Positions 16,977 through 26,635 of a stretch of DNA of 30,885 nucleotides are shown here, piece by piece. The stretch covers positions 1 through 30,885 of IMG/VR virus record IMGVR_UViG_3300044724_001531; one strand, given 5' to 3'. The position numbers were made by a program, and so were the translations under genes. The DNA is from a virus. Its lineage: Duplodnaviria; Caudoviricetes. The notes under the pieces were generated by a model. That model was not told the origin of the DNA. It was given only the letters and a program-made list of their open reading frames with translations, and did not search any database. Every line of letters begins with the position of its first letter. Positions within the stretch are counted from its first letter, which is position 1.

Positions 16977-17147
16977 ATGAAAGAACAAAAAGAACAGTGG
17001 AACCATCGGATCAAGGTCGAGTTGGCTGATGGTATGCGTGAAGTCCAGCGCAAGAGAAACGAAGAAAGCACAATGCGTGAGCTAACAGAGGAAGCCATTG
17101 CGCTGTTCTGTAAGGTCAACGGCGTAAAAGTTAAGGAAGCTGCATGA
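16977..17147 (+). CDS. Ribbon-helix-helix (Arc/CopG-like) transcriptional regulator, 56 aa (not in ORF track)
   Basis: MKEQKEQWNHRIKVELADGMREVQRKRNEESTMRELTEEAIALFCKVNGVKVKEAA*: strand-helix-turn-helix pattern; first gene after the operator array; ATGA overlap with the next gene. Confidence 0.7.
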   Translation: MKEQKEQWNHRIKVELADGMREVQRKRNEESTMRELTEEAIALFCKVNGVKVKEAA

Positions 17148-17617
17148 CTGTCATCGTAGGCATAGATGTGGGATACACTGGCGCTGTCGCATTTCTCTGG
17201 CCAAACATGAAGCTAGAAATACACGACATGCCTGTGCTGAAGAACGCCAAGGGCAAGACTGAGCTTAATCTGCACATACTGCACGAGCTGCTCACGCCTG
17301 AAGGTGACGAACCGCACATGGCTTTTATTGAGCAGGTGGCAGCAATGCGCGGCCAAGGCGTGTCGTCAATGTTTCGTTTCGGTGAGACATACGGCGCAAC
17401 GCAGATGGCAGTCGCGGCTCACAAAATCCCAATACAGTACGTCACGCCTGCAAAGTGGAAAGGTCATTTCAGACTAAACCGCGATAAAGGCGTTTCACGA
17501 GGTCTAGCAACGCAGCGCTTTCCAGACTGCGCAGACCTATTTAAGCGCGTCAAAGATGACGGCAGAGCAGAGGCAGCGCTGATTGCGCTATACGGCAAGG
17601 AGGCAACAAATGGCTAA
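17144..17617 (+). CDS. ruvC: RuvC-like Holliday junction resolvase
   Basis: IVGIDVG.TGA, FIEQV, GVSSMFRFG, VTPAKWK and DGRAEAALIA catalytic motifs. Confidence 0.88.
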   Translation: MTVIVGIDVGYTGAVAFLWPNMKLEIHDMPVLKNAKGKTELNLHILHELLTPEGDEPHMAFIEQVAAMRGQGVSSMFRFGETYGATQMAVAAHKIPIQYVTPAKWKGHFRLNRDKGVSRGLATQRFPDCADLFKRVKDDGRAEAALIALYGKEATNG

Positions 17618-19605: not shown

Positions 19606-21801
19606 ATGGAAATGGAACACAAAATGCAAATTGCTCCCAAGTCCGACATCATTAAGCAATTCATATCACAAATTACAAAGAATTGGAATGAAGTTGGTCA
19701 GCCGTTATTAGAGATACGAGCAATCTCACCATCTGGATCAACAAACGCCGCACGTTTTAGGCTCGATCAAATAGACGAAGCAGTGCAGCACGCCGAGGCA
19801 ATGAACGCAGCCAAGGCAAACATCTACATGTGCATCAATGCCATTGATCCAATCAAAGCCGAAGACATACCAGCAGGCAAAGCCGCCAAAGACACAGACA
19901 TTCTCGCAGCCTTCTACTGCTTTGCAGACGCAGACACAAAAGGCGCAATGGAAAACATTATGTCTTTTGCTGGGCCGAAATTCACCATGTCAGTCAAGAC
20001 AGGCACAACGCCATTCTCCAGAGGCCATGCATATTGGGAACTGGAAGAGCCTTGCAAAAACATGGACGCATGGAAAGAAGTGCAAAAATCCATAGCAGCC
20101 AGCCTCCAGACAGACGCGGCAGTCATAAATCCTAGCAGAATTATGCGCGTGGCAGGCACAGTCTCATGGCCTAACAAAAAGAAGCAAGACAAAGGCTACG
20201 TCCCTGAACTCGTGACAATGCGCACAGAATTTAGCACAGACAGAGACGTTCAGCCGTTTGAACGCCTCATGCGTGCATTCCCGAAAAAAGAAGTGCCTAA
20301 CAATCAAGTTGGCGGCATAGAAATAGACCTTGGACAGCAAGCAATGGATCGGCAGCTTGCAGCGCAAAGCGTCATGTCAGGCGACGATTGGCACAACAAC
20401 ATCATCAGGCTCGTCGCCTCATACGTCAGCAAAGGGCTGTCAGACGAGGAAATCCATGCCATCACGGACAGCTTCACGCTGTCAGGCTACTCGGTAGACG
20501 ACACACGCCAAGAAGTGCAGCAGGCAATCAACGGTGCAAGGGACAAAGGATGGACGCCACCGCCCGATCCAATCAAAGAACGCATGCAGCAGCAAAACCA
20601 AGCTCTAAACATACCGTCAGAGCCGTCAGAAAGCCCCACAGAGGACGCAAAAGAACAAAATTGGCCTACGCCCTATGAAATGTTTGATGCGCTTACGCTG
20701 CCGCGTAGGGAATGGGTGTACGGATACGACTACATCAAAAAGTACATCAGCGTCACAGCCTCGGCAGGGGGCATCGGTAAAACGTCCCTGATTAATGTGG
20801 AAGCCTTAGCAATCGCGACAGGCAGGCCGCTGCTCGGCGTACCTGTAAAAGAACAGACAAATGTCTGGGTCATCAACCTTGAAGACCCAATTTCCGAGAT
20901 GCAAATGCGCACAATCGCTGCCATGCAGCACTACGGCCTCACACCAGACGACATCAAAGGCCGACTGTTTATGGACGGCGAGGACACCATGCAGATCACG
21001 CTCGCGGCAGAAAACAGAGACGGCCTCATCACAAACGACGACATGCTGGCAGCCATGATCCGCGTCATCAAACAAAACAAAATCGGCGTCGTCATCCTCG
21101 ATCCGTTCGTGTCAGCCCATCTGGTCAACGAAAACAACAACGGAAGCATCCAAGCAGTCGTGGCAATGCTCAGAAAGCTCGCCAGAGACACAAACAGCTC
21201 AGTTCAGCTCGTGCATCACATCAGAAAGACAAACGGTGACGACGCAACGATTGACAGTGTCAGAGGCGCAGGATCACTCATTGGGGCAGCACGCGCAGCC
21301 AGAGTAATAAACAGAATAACACCAGACGATGCAATCGCGCTAGGCGTAGACGAACACGAAGCGCTCGGCATCTTCAGAGTTGACGACGGCAAAGCAAACC
21401 TCGCACCGCCATCAGACAAGGCAACTTACAGACGCATGCAGTCAGTAGAGATCGCAAACGGAGAACACATTGGGGTTGCCACGGAGTTTAAGCTGCCCGA
21501 TCTGTTTGACGGCGTGACAGCTAAGAACCTCTACAATGTGCAACGCACAATCGGCAAGGCAGAGGAAGCAGACGATGCCTACAGAGCAAACGCGCAGGCT
21601 GACAACTGGGTCGGTAAGGCTGTTGCGGCAGAGCTAGACCTTGATCTGGGCAAGCCAAATCATGTGGCGAAGACGAAAGCAATCATCAAGCAGTGGATCA
21701 GCTCTGGCAGCCTGCAAGTTGTCAAGCTGCCAAACAAACGAAAAGGCGGCGAAGCACCGTGTGTGATCGTCGGTGAATGGGTGAACCATGACGAAGTCTA
21801 A
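19606..21801 (+). CDS. Primase-helicase (RepB-type primase domain plus AAA_25/RepA-like helicase)
   Basis: FADAD, GHAYW and INPSRIMRVAGT primase motifs; Walker A ASAGGIGKT, Walker B VVILDP, LVHHIRK and RGAGSLIGAARA helicase motifs. Confidence 0.9.
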   Translation: MEMEHKMQIAPKSDIIKQFISQITKNWNEVGQPLLEIRAISPSGSTNAARFRLDQIDEAVQHAEAMNAAKANIYMCINAIDPIKAEDIPAGKAAKDTDILAAFYCFADADTKGAMENIMSFAGPKFTMSVKTGTTPFSRGHAYWELEEPCKNMDAWKEVQKSIAASLQTDAAVINPSRIMRVAGTVSWPNKKKQDKGYVPELVTMRTEFSTDRDVQPFERLMRAFPKKEVPNNQVGGIEIDLGQQAMDRQLAAQSVMSGDDWHNNIIRLVASYVSKGLSDEEIHAITDSFTLSGYSVDDTRQEVQQAINGARDKGWTPPPDPIKERMQQQNQALNIPSEPSESPTEDAKEQNWPTPYEMFDALTLPRREWVYGYDYIKKYISVTASAGGIGKTSLINVEALAIATGRPLLGVPVKEQTNVWVINLEDPISEMQMRTIAAMQHYGLTPDDIKGRLFMDGEDTMQITLAAENRDGLITNDDMLAAMIRVIKQNKIGVVILDPFVSAHLVNENNNGSIQAVVAMLRKLARDTNSSVQLVHHIRKTNGDDATIDSVRGAGSLIGAARAARVINRITPDDAIALGVDEHEALGIFRVDDGKANLAPPSDKATYRRMQSVEIANGEHIGVATEFKLPDLFDGVTAKNLYNVQRTIGKAEEADDAYRANAQADNWVGKAVAAELDLDLGKPNHVAKTKAIIKQWISSGSLQVVKLPNKRKGGEAPCVIVGEWVNHDEV

Positions 21802-22597
21802 TCATTACAAGCTGCCAGAGGGCAACACGCTCATCAGTTTCAGCGGCGGCAGAACGTCAGGATACATGCTGCACCAAATACTTGAAGCAAACGGCGGTCT
21901 GCCAGACACAGCAAAGGTCACATTTGCAAACACTGGCAGAGAAATGCCAGAGACGCTCGACTTTGTGCAAGAATGCGCAGACAGATGGAATGTGCCAATC
22001 ACTTGGTTGGAGTTTCGCAAAGCCATGCCGAAGTTTGAAACTGTCAGCCACAACAGCGCAGCCAGAAACGGTGAGCCATTCGAGCAGCTTCTGCAAACAA
22101 AAGGTAATTACCTGCCAAACCAAGCTCAACGCTTCTGCACGCAGCAGATGAAGGTGCTGACAATAAAACGCTACCTCGTCAGTCAAGGATGGAAACGGTG
22201 GACGAACACTGTCGGCATCCGAGCAGACGAAGCGCACAGGGTCAAGCCTTCAACAGACAACAGATGGACAAACTGGTTTCCGCTAAACGATGCGCAAGTG
22301 TCGGTGCAGGACGTAAACCAATTCTGGAAGTCACAGCCGTTTGATCTGCGCGTAATGAAAGGCGGCGGGAACTGTGACGGATGCTTTCTAAAGTCAGAAG
22401 CAACACTGGCAGCCATGTGGCGCGAGCAGCCAGATAGAATGCAATGGTGGGCAGATATGGAAGCCAAGACAGGCGGGCAGTTTCACAAGACTAGAAATTA
22501 TGAACAGCTCGGCAGTTTTGTCAGCCGCCAAGGCGACTGGATATTTGATGACGAAGCATTCCTTTGTCAGGCAGATGATGGGGAGTGTACAGGGTGA
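21788..22597 (+). CDS. PAPS reductase family (PP-loop adenylyltransferase-like, DndC-like) protein
   Basis: ISFSGGRTS PP-loop, FANTGRE..ETLDFV, RFCT..MK, VGIRADE..R and GNCDGCFLK cysteine motifs. Confidence 0.85.
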   Translation: MTKSNHYKLPEGNTLISFSGGRTSGYMLHQILEANGGLPDTAKVTFANTGREMPETLDFVQECADRWNVPITWLEFRKAMPKFETVSHNSAARNGEPFEQLLQTKGNYLPNQAQRFCTQQMKVLTIKRYLVSQGWKRWTNTVGIRADEAHRVKPSTDNRWTNWFPLNDAQVSVQDVNQFWKSQPFDLRVMKGGGNCDGCFLKSEATLAAMWREQPDRMQWWADMEAKTGGQFHKTRNYEQLGSFVSRQGDWIFDDEAFLCQADDGECTG

Positions 22598-22603
22598 TAA
22601 AAC

Positions 22604-23351: not shown

Positions 23352-23418
23352 GATAGTGACGGTACTTGATAGTGCAGAGCTTTACCCATTTCCTTCTGCA
23401 CTTTCTGCCTCACTGAAC

Positions 23419-23447
23419 TGGCTCGGCATTGCGCCGAGCCTTTTTTG
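23419..23447 (+). terminator. Intrinsic terminator
   Basis: GGCTCGGC-attgc-GCCGAGCC followed by TTTTTT. Confidence 0.85.
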
Positions 23448-23655: not shown

Positions 23656-23734
23656 CGCGTCAGAACACACAGCGACGGCAAGGCGCGGACGCACGCGCGG
23701 ATAACTGAACGCTCGTTCAATTACAAGATTGGGC

Positions 23735-23750
23735 ATACTATATGTTGTGT
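23735..23750. promoter_or_regulatory. NrdR-box-like motif
   Basis: ATACTATATGTTGTGT (reverse complement ACACAACATATAGTAT) resembles the 16-bp NrdR box consensus acaCwAtATaTwGtgt. Confidence 0.5.
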
Positions 23751-23818
23751 TTGCCTTGGCTGATGCGGCTGCTTTTACACCAATAATTACCTAAAGCATT
23801 GAAATCATTGACTATTGC

Positions 23819-23846
23819 ATTTCACATATGTGGTATTATGCGACTT
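23819..23846 (-). other. dif-like XerC/XerD recombination site
   Basis: Minus strand AAGTCGCATAA-TACCAC-ATATGTGAAAT versus E. coli dif GGTGCGCATAA-TGTATA-TTATGTTAAAT; 11-6-11 layout, XerD arm 9/11 identical. Confidence 0.65.
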
Positions 23847-23998
23847 TTCTGTTAAACGACACCGCGCAGCCCCCCCCCAACGCGACAGAAGAGGGGGGCA
23901 TGTGTGTGTAGAAAAACGCACATACGGCTGCCAAAACAACCTTGACCCCACCCCCACTACACATTAACTATTAAGCGACAGCATAGGAGAAAAATAAA

Positions 23999-24595
23999 AT
24001 GTGCAGAAATTGTGATCGGGATGATGTGATGGCAAGAGGGCTTTGTTCGGCCTGTTATATGCGTCTTCGCAGATTTGCCCAAAAGGGGTATTTGGAGGCT
24101 CGTCGCCCAAAAGGTGAGAACGAGGAGCTTGCCTTACAGACAAGAGCAGAATGGCAGTCTCGGTTTCTCAGCAAGATCGACACCTCATCAGATGGGTGCC
24201 ACGAGTGGACGGCAGGCAAGACGAAGGGCGGCTATGGTATGTTTAACGTGGCGGATCGCTCGATATTGGCGCATCGTCTTGTGTATAGATTGGCGGGGAA
24301 TGATTACCATGATGTTATTATGCACATGTGCGACAACCCGAGCTGCTGCAACATTGAGCATTTGCGCGGTGGGACGTACAGAGACAACATGCGTGACATG
24401 GATATGAAAGGTCGTCGCAGACCGTCTCGCGCGGATCATTTGCGTGACCGCAAAAACCACCCACGCGCACGCGCTGTTTTTACGCCTTTGGGTGAGTTTG
24501 CCTCGGCTGCCTTAGCATCCGAAGTCCATGGCATTTCTGCGCGTACAATTCAGCGCAAATGTAGCGACGGTGTTCAAGGGTATGGCTACATTTAG
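23999..24595 (+). CDS. HNH homing endonuclease with N-terminal zinc finger
   Basis: CxxC...ARGLCSACY finger; CHEWTAG...GYG...AHRLVY...HMCDNPSCCNIEHL..GT..DN..D HNH domain; C-terminal NUMOD1-like HTH; SD AGGAG. Confidence 0.88.
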   Translation: MCRNCDRDDVMARGLCSACYMRLRRFAQKGYLEARRPKGENEELALQTRAEWQSRFLSKIDTSSDGCHEWTAGKTKGGYGMFNVADRSILAHRLVYRLAGNDYHDVIMHMCDNPSCCNIEHLRGGTYRDNMRDMDMKGRRRPSRADHLRDRKNHPRARAVFTPLGEFASAALASEVHGISARTIQRKCSDGVQGYGYI

Positions 24596-24704: not shown

Positions 24705-24733
24705 TTGCCAGAACTGCTAGCATCGTCTAAAAT
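24705..24733 (+). promoter_or_regulatory. Sigma70-like promoter for terS with an operator-like site in its spacer
   Basis: TTGCCA-17 nt (contains CTGCTAGCAT, 24714-24723)-TAAAAT. Confidence 0.65.
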
Positions 24734-24759: not shown

Positions 24760-25242
24760 ATGGCGGGAAAGCAGTTAAAAAAGACGATACTTGCTGATGT
24801 GGCTAAAAAGGGCGGTGCGGAGTATGTTCGTGAGATGGCGTCTAGCATGACGTTGAAGGCCTGGGCTGCTCAGGAATGGGAATGCAGCCGCAACTATTTG
24901 AGCGAGACGATCCGCAGTGTTCCTGAGTATGCTCGTGCATTGGAGGGTGCGCAGTCGGTTTTAGCGGATGCTATGATGGAGGAGAATGTTGAGATTGCCG
25001 ACAACATTCCAGAGACTGCATCGAGTACGCAGATTGCGAAGGTTCGTGAGCAGATGCAGGCTCGAAAGATGTTGGCTGCTGGGCTGAACAGGGATCGGTA
25101 CGGCTCTGGCCCTCGTGCTGAGATTACTTTGAACCTTGGCGATTTGCACTTAGATGCTCTGCGGAAGATCAGCGCGGATCGCCAGGCATTGATGGCAGAG
25201 GATCGTGAGCGTGAGATGAAAGTAATTGAGCATGACGACTGA
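24760..25242 (+). CDS. terS: Terminase small subunit
   Basis: Directly upstream of and overlapping terL; helical; ADAMMEENVEIAD and RKMLAAGLNRDRYG motifs. Confidence 0.8.
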   Translation: MAGKQLKKTILADVAKKGGAEYVREMASSMTLKAWAAQEWECSRNYLSETIRSVPEYARALEGAQSVLADAMMEENVEIADNIPETASSTQIAKVREQMQARKMLAAGLNRDRYGSGPRAEITLNLGDLHLDALRKISADRQALMAEDREREMKVIEHDD

Positions 25243-26635
25243 CGCCAATCCTTTTGAGGAGTTTACGTTACAGTACATGGATGACCCTGTGCTGTTCGTC
25301 AAAGAAGTGCTAGGCGCTGAGCCTTTGCCGTATCAGGCTGAGTTTTTGGAGGCTATTGCGACAGGAGAGCGTCGGATTAGCATACGAAGCGGTCACGGCA
25401 CTGGAAAGTCAACGTCTGCCTCGTGGGCGATGCTGTGGTATTTGCTGATGCGGTTTCCCAATAAGGTGGTTGTGACAGCCCCCACAAGCGGTCAGTTGTT
25501 TGACGCACTGTTTGCGGAGCTAAAAAGATGGATCGGTGAGCTGCCGAAGCCAATACAAGACTTACTGACCGTAAAAAGTGATCGAGTTGAGCTGTCGGCT
25601 GCGCCGAGTGAGATGTTTATTTCTGCCAGAACAAGTAGAGCAGAAACGCCAGAGGCTTTGGCTGGGGTACACAGTGACAATGTTTTGCTTGTTGTTGACG
25701 AAGCGTCTGGTGTGCCTGAGAAGGTATTTGAGGCGGCTGCTGGCAGTATGTCGGGTCATAATGCTACGACAATCCTTCTCAGCAACCCAACGCGCTCGAC
25801 AGGTACGTTTTATGAGAGCCAGACGCGGATGGCGAACAGTTGGTGGACGCAGCGGTGGAGTTGCGTTGACAGTCCACTTGTGAGTGATGAGTTCGTTGAC
25901 GAGATGCGTGAGCGGTATGGTGAGGAGAGCAATGCGTTTCGGATCAGGGTTCTTGGTGAGTTTCCGTTAGCTGACGATGATACGATTATACCGTTTCATT
26001 TGGTTGATGCTGCGATGAACAGGGATATTGAGGTTGATGATGAGCGTCGGCCTGTCTGGGCTGTTGACCCTGCGCGGTTTGGTAGCGATAGGACGGCGTT
26101 TTGCAAGAGGGTCGGATCAGTAATAACCGAAATAAAGTCGTGGCGTGGGCTAGACTTGATGCAGACAGTTGGTCGTGTGATGGCAGAGTATGAGGCTCTA
26201 AATCCGAGCAACAGGCCGTCAGAGATATTGGTTGACAGCATTGGCGTCGGCTCTGGCGTTGTTGATCGTTTGCGTGAGCTTGGAGCGCCTGTGAGGGGTG
26301 TGAATGTGGCTGAAAGTCCGTCTATGGGCGAAACGTACAATAATTTGAGAACTGAGCTGTGGTTTAAGACAAAGGCATGGTTGGAGGATCGTTCTTGCAA
26401 GTTGCCGCAAGATGATGAGCTTTTGGCTGATCTGACAGGCATTCGGTATTCGTTTACGTCGTCTGGCAAGATGGCGGCTGAGAGCAAGGATCAGATGAGG
26501 CGCAGAGGATTAAGATCACCTGACTTGGCAGATGCTGTTTGCTTGACAATGGCGTCAGACGCGGCGATGGCTCTGTCTGGGCCTATGAGTACATGGCGGG
26601 GCGAATTGAGAAGGAATTTGCGTGGCATAGCATAA
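25232..26635 (+). CDS. terL: Terminase large subunit
   Basis: Walker A SGHGTGKS, VVTAPT, Walker B LVVDEASGV, SNP coupling motif; nuclease AVDPARFGSD and SPDLADA. Confidence 0.95.
   Translation: MTTDANPFEEFTLQYMDDPVLFVKEVLGAEPLPYQAEFLEAIATGERRISIRSGHGTGKSTSASWAMLWYLLMRFPNKVVVTAPTSGQLFDALFAELKRWIGELPKPIQDLLTVKSDRVELSAAPSEMFISARTSRAETPEALAGVHSDNVLLVVDEASGVPEKVFEAAAGSMSGHNATTILLSNPTRSTGTFYESQTRMANSWWTQRWSCVDSPLVSDEFVDEMRERYGEESNAFRIRVLGEFPLADDDTIIPFHLVDAAMNRDIEVDDERRPVWAVDPARFGSDRTAFCKRVGSVITEIKSWRGLDLMQTVGRVMAEYEALNPSNRPSEILVDSIGVGSGVVDRLRELGAPVRGVNVAESPSMGETYNNLRTELWFKTKAWLEDRSCKLPQDDELLADLTGIRYSFTSSGKMAAESKDQMRRRGLRSPDLADAVCLTMASDAAMALSGPMSTWRGELRRNLRGIA

Follow-up and report, generated by a model that had tools for sequence, protein, structure and literature searches.

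What does a tailed phage with no visible integrase do with a dif-like site just upstream of its packaging genes? The locus that raises this question lies in a linear virus record of 30,885 bp, analysed over its whole length (the window), which encodes a portal, a major head protein, a primase-polymerase, a RuvC-like Holliday junction resolvase (17144–17617, plus strand; PHROGs search), and the small and large terminase subunits, terS (24760–25242, plus strand, with a promoter-like site at 24705–24733) and terL (25226–26635, plus strand). By TerL, the closest cultured relatives are Sinorhizobium phage phiM5 (54.5% identity) and phage C72C1 (46.9%), and the sequencing runs that contain window DNA are mostly estuarine or marine. 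An earlier note on this DNA had proposed a Xer site with NrdR and IHF as accessory factors and had seen neither an nrd nor a recombinase gene; indeed, none of 37 ORFs in this ~85% complete record matched such a family in PHROGs. A search for structured RNA in the window returned nothing beyond a sub-threshold match to Rfam SorX at 23390–23446 (30.4 bits, cut-off 46.6), which lies over a terminator-like hairpin.

The 11-6-11 core is present as described at 23819–23846, reading AAGTCGCATAA-TACCAC-ATATGTGAAAT on the minus strand, and consists of a XerD-arm-like half site (23819–23829), a 6-bp central region (23830–23835) and a XerC-arm-like half site (23836–23846), all in minus-strand orientation. 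An enterobacterial-type dif pattern matches nowhere else in the window at ≤3 mismatches, and 2 of 100 shuffles gave such a match; of the four motifs at this locus (core, IHF-like site, NrdR-like box and palindrome), the core alone exceeds chance within the window. On inspection, a centre of 7 or 8 bp makes for worse arms.

The XerC/XerD-type core is conserved, with fixed arms and a free spacer. A terS-selected set comprised 41 loci, 37 of which were scanned (four with almost no upstream DNA were left out); 34 of the 37 carry a dif-like site and the three misses are truncated contigs. A terL-selected set numbered 81 loci, the window among them. Of the 58 with 700 bp or more of upstream DNA, 54 have a site with ≤2 mismatches ahead of terL, versus 4 of 47 downstream control stretches; because the loci are kin and not independent, both sets of counts overstate independence. 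Three of the terL-selected misses end short of the position at which their kin carry the site, and L248, with 3 kb of upstream DNA, is a true miss. Across 55 distinct cassettes the XerD arm is near-invariant, with A at position 5 in 50 and A at position 11 in 51. The window deviates at both positions, so the non-consensus inner XerD base flagged earlier is real and belongs to the window allele. In the XerC arm, 54 of 55 cassettes share a G at core column 24, a base that the search pattern did not contain. The central region differs among relatives, taking 28 forms in the 55 cassettes (46 forms in 119 pattern-selected loci), while its edges are mostly T (50/55) and A (47/55). Two further features were observed around the core: an inverted repeat (TTGC..GCATRG on the left, YATGC..GCAA on the right) flanks it in 65 of 91 cassettes (L372, L003, L005 and others) and is missing from the window allele, and L053, L103, L129, L155 and L537 carry paired dif-like sites close together, some of them inverted.

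The linkage to the packaging genes is likewise kept in relatives, most of which carry the site 160–280 bp upstream of terS. In the window, an HNH endonuclease gene (23999–24595, plus strand) stands between the dif-like site and terS. This gene is an optional insertion that most relatives lack and one contig skips. The deviant XerD arm of the window recurs in loci whose HNH gene is at least 61% identical to this one and not in those with a 46% identical HNH gene. In the window and L238, the altered arm that accompanies the insertion creates the palindrome CACATATGTG, perhaps an immune allele of a homing target or a new binding site. A PAPS-reductase-family gene at 21788–22597 is a second optional insertion; contigs in three runs skip 21799–22600.

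The association extends well beyond this family. In IMG/VR the dif pattern matched ~2600 stretches versus ~520 for the reversed pattern, and TerL was encoded within 2.5 kb in 34 of 80 cases versus 9 of 80 for the reversed pattern (p = 1.2e-5), a contrast that may be somewhat inflated, as dif-bearing phages supplied the local TerL queries and the search took in 67 of 68 ORFs on the test side versus 97 of 137 on the control side. The orientation of the site relative to terL is mixed across viruses (20 versus 14). TerL proteins of other families lie beside the cassette in 12 of the 16 loci whose ORFs were searched. In the larger viral contigs L482, L491 and L521, dif-type sites lie beside groEL genes.

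Among cultured phages, the lytic Vequintavirinae carry a dif-type site inside terminal repeats of 459–519 bp. It occupies positions 289–316 of the annotated 519-bp repeat of Hena1 and 170–197 of the 459-bp repeat at both ends of Gotham and EdH4; the accessible text of PMC6563267 gives the repeat as 458 bp and makes no mention of Xer. Their spacers differ from the enterobacterial chromosomal spacer on both sides. The site of rV5 lies in a gene-free region; this phage is called circularly permuted in PMC3606486, whose available portion does not mention Xer, and headful packaging is described for another Vequintavirus in the available part of PMC13211470. The Seurat genome has no annotated repeat and carries its site away from terL. 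Non-coding gaps also contain dif-type cores in the cultured phages L169 and L176 (WildeMaa and Seurat), L172 (H101) and L177.

Does the window family also carry its site within a terminal redundancy, as Hena1, Gotham and EdH4 do? It may, to judge indirectly from phiM5, in which a 357-bp terminal repeat includes an IHF motif and finishes 44 bp past the point where a poly-C run begins. The window has a similar poly-C/poly-G element followed by a conserved GTGTAGAAAAACGCA (23870–23920, plus strand), and by analogy with phiM5 the right end of the repeat would fall near 23913. The sequencing runs with window DNA all proved to be assembled contigs, four of which were compared and gave no end information for this family; the available text of PMC13299392 likewise offers none on termini. 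Of 154 contigs, ten have an end no more than 150 bp from the XerC side, versus 0–6 in other bins; three of these ten ends lie 43–45 bp after the poly-C start, as in phiM5, and contigs arriving from the right start at the poly-C run. Homopolymer breaks explain this clustering equally well, and its support for a terminus is weak. No dif site occurs in the stretches read of phiM5 and three Manatee Spring relatives.

The stretch from the NrdR box to the XerC arm is exchanged between phages. In the window it is only 60–65% identical to that of three phages whose TerS is 96–98% identical and whose upstream 300 bp are 91–93% identical. Conversely, one cassette allele is 75–81% identical between close relatives and phages with a TerL 57–59% identical to that of the window. 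The cassette thus moves independently of the terminase, as expected if it is read by host proteins. These proteins may belong to Rhodobacteraceae or other Alphaproteobacteria, to which the operators and arms point as hosts; the bin that contains L255 looks mixed.

Together, these data suggest, with a probability of about 40%, that host XerC/XerD recombines the two terminal-repeat copies and thereby circularises the injected linear genome. The exchangeable non-coding cassette ahead of the terminase genes contains the dif-type core and likely lies inside a short terminal repeat, so that XerCD would join its two end copies into a circle. Because the two copies are identical, the spacer is free to vary, and a spacer unlike that of the host would avoid recombination with the chromosome. 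Phage P1 offers a precedent: loxP lies near the packaging start and is duplicated in the terminal redundancy, and Cre closes the genome into a circle. The site of the window family is proposed to share both the location and the duplication, but the recombinase would be host XerCD. A XerC-first Holliday junction might be finished by replication or by the phage RuvC-like resolvase; FtsK-independent exchange that XerC initiates and replication or a resolvase completes is known for CTX and ColE1 (PMC9226527, PMC5357621, in their accessible text).

Several observations weigh against circularisation. FtsK is normally required for recombination at dif, and synapsis driven by accessory factors, as at cer and psi, depends on supercoiled DNA (PMC9226527, 10.64898/2026.02.23.706985, available parts); supercoiling is absent from a freshly injected linear genome. 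phiM5 has a terminal repeat without dif, so the site is dispensable for that lifestyle. The innermost base of the window XerD arm is changed, and inner arm bases are described as the more constrained ones in the accessible text of PMC9226527. The reports of headful packaging in a Vequintavirus and of circular permutation in rV5, the position of the Seurat site away from terL, the mixed orientation and the lack of a site in L248 also count against it.

A phage-borne dif-like site without a phage recombinase is what integrative elements exploiting Xer (CTX, VGJ, TLC and gokushoviruses) possess, and the earlier note had considered insertion at the host dif. Several data fit an attP: most relatives lack an integrase, with no tyrosine integrase (PF00589) above cut-off in 10 near-complete relatives or in four further non-provirus records. 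Gokushovirus motifs vary in their spacers and still integrate (PMC7062461, available text), and VGJ-type integration requires homology on the XerC side only (PMC5357621, available text); 24 of 55 cassettes have ACA as the triplet on that side. The search for inserted phages nevertheless came back empty within the genomes sampled, a limited sampling: none of five loci in a genome scan for dif-flanked prophages had a dif, a TerL search of 401 Rhodobacteraceae-family genomes matched one bin contig only, and 26 alphaproteobacterial prophage-type loci with a distant TerL, 24 of them with upstream DNA, yielded one weak dif-like match. The provirus G055 encodes an integrase of its own at one end, with the cassette internal, ~110–250 bp before terL, and C72C1 has the site between terS and terL. 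Nor does the spacer match: dif-like sites in cellular genomes of the Rhodobacteraceae family share the arms, and their spacer TACTGA, recurrent in seven genomes and probably marking the chromosomal dif, differs from that of the window. Integration at dif is thus very unlikely for these tailed dsDNA phages, whose site is tied to the packaging region. The complete relative G007, one of five examined, encodes a 246-aa serine-recombinase-like protein (L300:1292–2032) alongside its dif site.

Compared with the chromosomal dif/XerC-XerD/FtsK system, the phage site has the same 11-6-11 core and conserved XerD arm, and its XerC arm resembles those of Rhodobacteraceae-family sites. It differs in its place beside the terminase, in its freely variable spacer and in its surroundings: the window contains no GGGNAGGG KOPS and hence no KOPS polarity, and the 32 cellular dif-like sites have no NrdR box and two weak IHF words.

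The IHF-like 13-mer on the minus strand at 23792–23804 is confirmed, with one mismatch to the IHF consensus WATCAANNNNTTR; its start and the outer edge of the XerD arm are 27 bp apart, and relatives have the exact consensus at the same place. Taken singly it is not significant, as the window holds 36 IHF-like words against 27 expected. Across relatives, 30 of 55 cassettes have an IHF word (≤1 mismatch) no more than 45 bp from the XerD arm, versus 1.7% of random windows, and in 25 it is undetected. Its offset from the XerD arm takes discrete values: 21, 27, 32, 36 or 37 bp in 91 distinct cassettes, and 27 in 87, 32 in 17 and 39 in 10 of the 119 loci of the pattern scan. The offset is also 27 in C72C1. 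Some alleles have the word in reverse, as do Seurat and WildeMaa, in which 3 bp separate the end of the reversed site from the XerD arm. L488 and L530 have it on the XerC side, and in rV5 and Hena1 it is not adjacent to the core. An IHF word occurs without dif in the Vibrio phages L170 and L171, and together with poly-C runs in phiM5 and an Enterovirga prophage. Because the word and poly-C occur without dif, and because side, orientation and adjacency vary, IHF looks like a terminus feature first. IHF sites act at lambda cos and P1 pac and, as here and in phiM5, lie beside terminase genes; the phage cassettes differ in their discrete distances between IHF, the Xer core and a NrdR box. The primary role of IHF is likely at the terminase, with bending of the DNA at the core as a possible second one. 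The proposal that IHF is a Xer accessory factor therefore holds as far as co-conservation with the core, far above chance, is concerned, and is weakened as regards a dedicated cofactor role.

The single NrdR-box-like 16-mer at 23735–23750, 68 bp from the core, was also correctly identified. It has all six conserved positions (C4, A6, A8, T9, T11 and G13). The window contains no second match, although a match also turns up in 28 of 100 shuffles. Of 55 cassettes, 23 have on the XerD side a box that keeps all six positions, versus 4.3% of random windows, and the other 32 have none. Near-identical boxes precede cellular RNR genes, and the cassette boxes vary at positions 5, 7, 10 and 12, which are the tolerant ones in a NrdR mutational study (10.64898/2026.05.11.724285). 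Unlike operators of RNR promoters, the phage box is single and has no RNR gene; no promoter-like site was found over it in the window. According to the accessible text of the same study, operators consist of two boxes 15–16 or 26–27 bp apart and an isolated box is not bound by NrdR in vitro, a pair being needed. A partner at canonical spacing occurs in one of 91 distinct cassettes, the other 90 having a single box. As an isolated box is unbound, it could work only with a partner on another copy or with help from other proteins. A dATP/ATP-loaded NrdR tetramer has been seen on DNA (PMC9110341, available text). In the clade of L319, L349, L351, L352 and L420, three NrdR-type boxes at 0, +18 and +48 adjoin the XerD arm and there is no clear IHF site.

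If NrdR and IHF were true accessory factors, the reaction would more likely take place on circles, because synapsis at cer and psi needs supercoiled DNA. IHF, NrdR and a TetR-type protein would then build a synapse on circular phage DNA, with one NrdR tetramer bridging the single boxes of two copies, and XerCD would resolve or control multimers. The geometry is compatible with such an assembly: the distance from the NrdR box to a forward IHF site is 46–47 or 57–58 bp, one helical turn apart, in eight allele clusters (one sequence has 43; 91 distinct cassettes in 15 clusters), and the box lies 52–82 bp from the arm in ~240 viral stretches versus 22–51 bp in seven. A half-turn ladder in the NrdR-to-XerD distances was dropped, having been chosen after the fact. 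The inverted repeat around the core in 65 of 91 cassettes would also fit, as does the weakened core of the window, which is typical of accessory-dependent sites (PMC9226527, accessible text). cer (ColE1; ArgR and PepA) and psi (pSC101; ArcA and PepA) likewise have a dif-like core served by a transcription regulator together with an architectural protein (10.64898/2026.02.23.706985, PMC5357621, available parts). The phage candidates, by comparison, are NrdR, IHF and a TetR-type protein; plasmid prophages with their own recombinases have been described (PMC8026635, available text).

Other features do not fit. In cer and psi the accessory sequences lie on the XerC side and are required in all copies. 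In the phage cassettes they lie mostly on the XerD side and are optional (NrdR in 23 and IHF in 30 of 55). The IHF-to-XerD offsets of 21, 27, 32 and 37 are not in one helical phase, NrdR does not bind isolated boxes in vitro (10.64898/2026.05.11.724285, accessible text), no ParA (PF01656) was found in five of five records, and multimer resolution would presumably oppose packaging from concatemers. A cer/psi-like synapse is accordingly a rather unlikely explanation. Of the proposal that NrdR assists XerCD, co-conservation with the core and the two IHF offsets stand; the single box in 90 of 91 cassettes and its absence from 32 of 55 speak against it.

The palindrome TGAACG-CT-CGTTCA at 23706–23719, likewise present as described, has the form TGAAC-N4-GTTCA and is likely a host operator of fatty-acid catabolism whose regulator is presumably of TetR/FadR type. 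It occurs in 28 of 37 NrdR-bearing loci, and TGACC-N4-GGTCA takes its place in seven. In 26 Rhodobacteraceae-family genomes the former gave 25 strand hits versus 1 for the control, with 8 of 18 loci next to an acyl-CoA dehydrogenase-like gene and 2 next to a fatty-acid CoA ligase-like one; the latter gave 35 hits versus 18 and adjoins a rutR-like gene in 4 of 14 loci, suggesting a RutR-type operator. These neighbour assignments come from the 42 of 56 ORFs that were searched, with matches under curated cut-offs. That two regulators with different signals fill one slot favours a role in occupancy over metabolite sensing. The single NrdR box and the TetR-type operator may thus be optional host-protein anchors, more probably structural than sensory, and control by nucleotide pools, which the earlier note considered possible, is weakened, the NrdR box being optional and single and the neighbouring slot swapping fatty-acid-catabolism and RutR-type operators.

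A string of interchangeable host-protein sites could serve binding without any strand exchange, with XerCD, IHF, NrdR and a TetR-type repressor coating the genome end as an exonuclease shield or positioning the terminase or repeat duplication. The two unrelated operators in one slot, the occurrence of IHF and poly-C without dif, and the free spacer, which fits binding as well as self-recombination, are in line with this explanation. It accounts less readily for the retention of the 6-bp spacing, both arms and the T...A spacer edges (50/55 and 47/55), as for a recombination site, although cooperative binding would keep them too. On balance, we consider pure binding improbable. More improbable still is a decoy function, in which amplified phage DNA titrates NrdR, TetR-type repressors and XerCD and derepresses host RNR and catabolic genes: no nrd gene was found among the tested ORFs and the operators match host ones exactly, but a single box is unbound by NrdR (10.64898/2026.05.11.724285, accessible text) and titration does not need a fixed spacing to IHF or the terminase.

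Circularisation by host XerCD, the reading that we prefer, might be combined with a regulatory role of NrdR in a new class of Xer site in lytic tailed-phage terminal repeats. There, IHF would bend the DNA beside XerD and a dATP-loaded NrdR tetramer would bridge boxes on two ends or copies, so that XerCD would circularise or remodel the DNA only when dATP builds up. This idea is improbable; if true, the dATP-gated site would link the switch from replication to packaging to nucleotide pools.

Searches of the open-access literature found no report of lytic tailed phages with host Xer sites at their genome ends, nor of NrdR or IHF as Xer cofactors; the related work there concerns filamentous, microviral and non-tailed phages and plasmids. 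Described uses of host XerCD by phages and plasmids are integration of filamentous and other small phages and plasmid resolution. The retention of a dif site at the genome ends of strictly lytic tailed phages, marine podoviruses and rV5-like coliphages alike, suggests a third use, the processing of the phage's own genome. It bears on how short-terminal-repeat phages without a recombinase close or concatemerise their DNA, and NrdR would gain a structural role outside transcription should its single box indeed act as a bridge.
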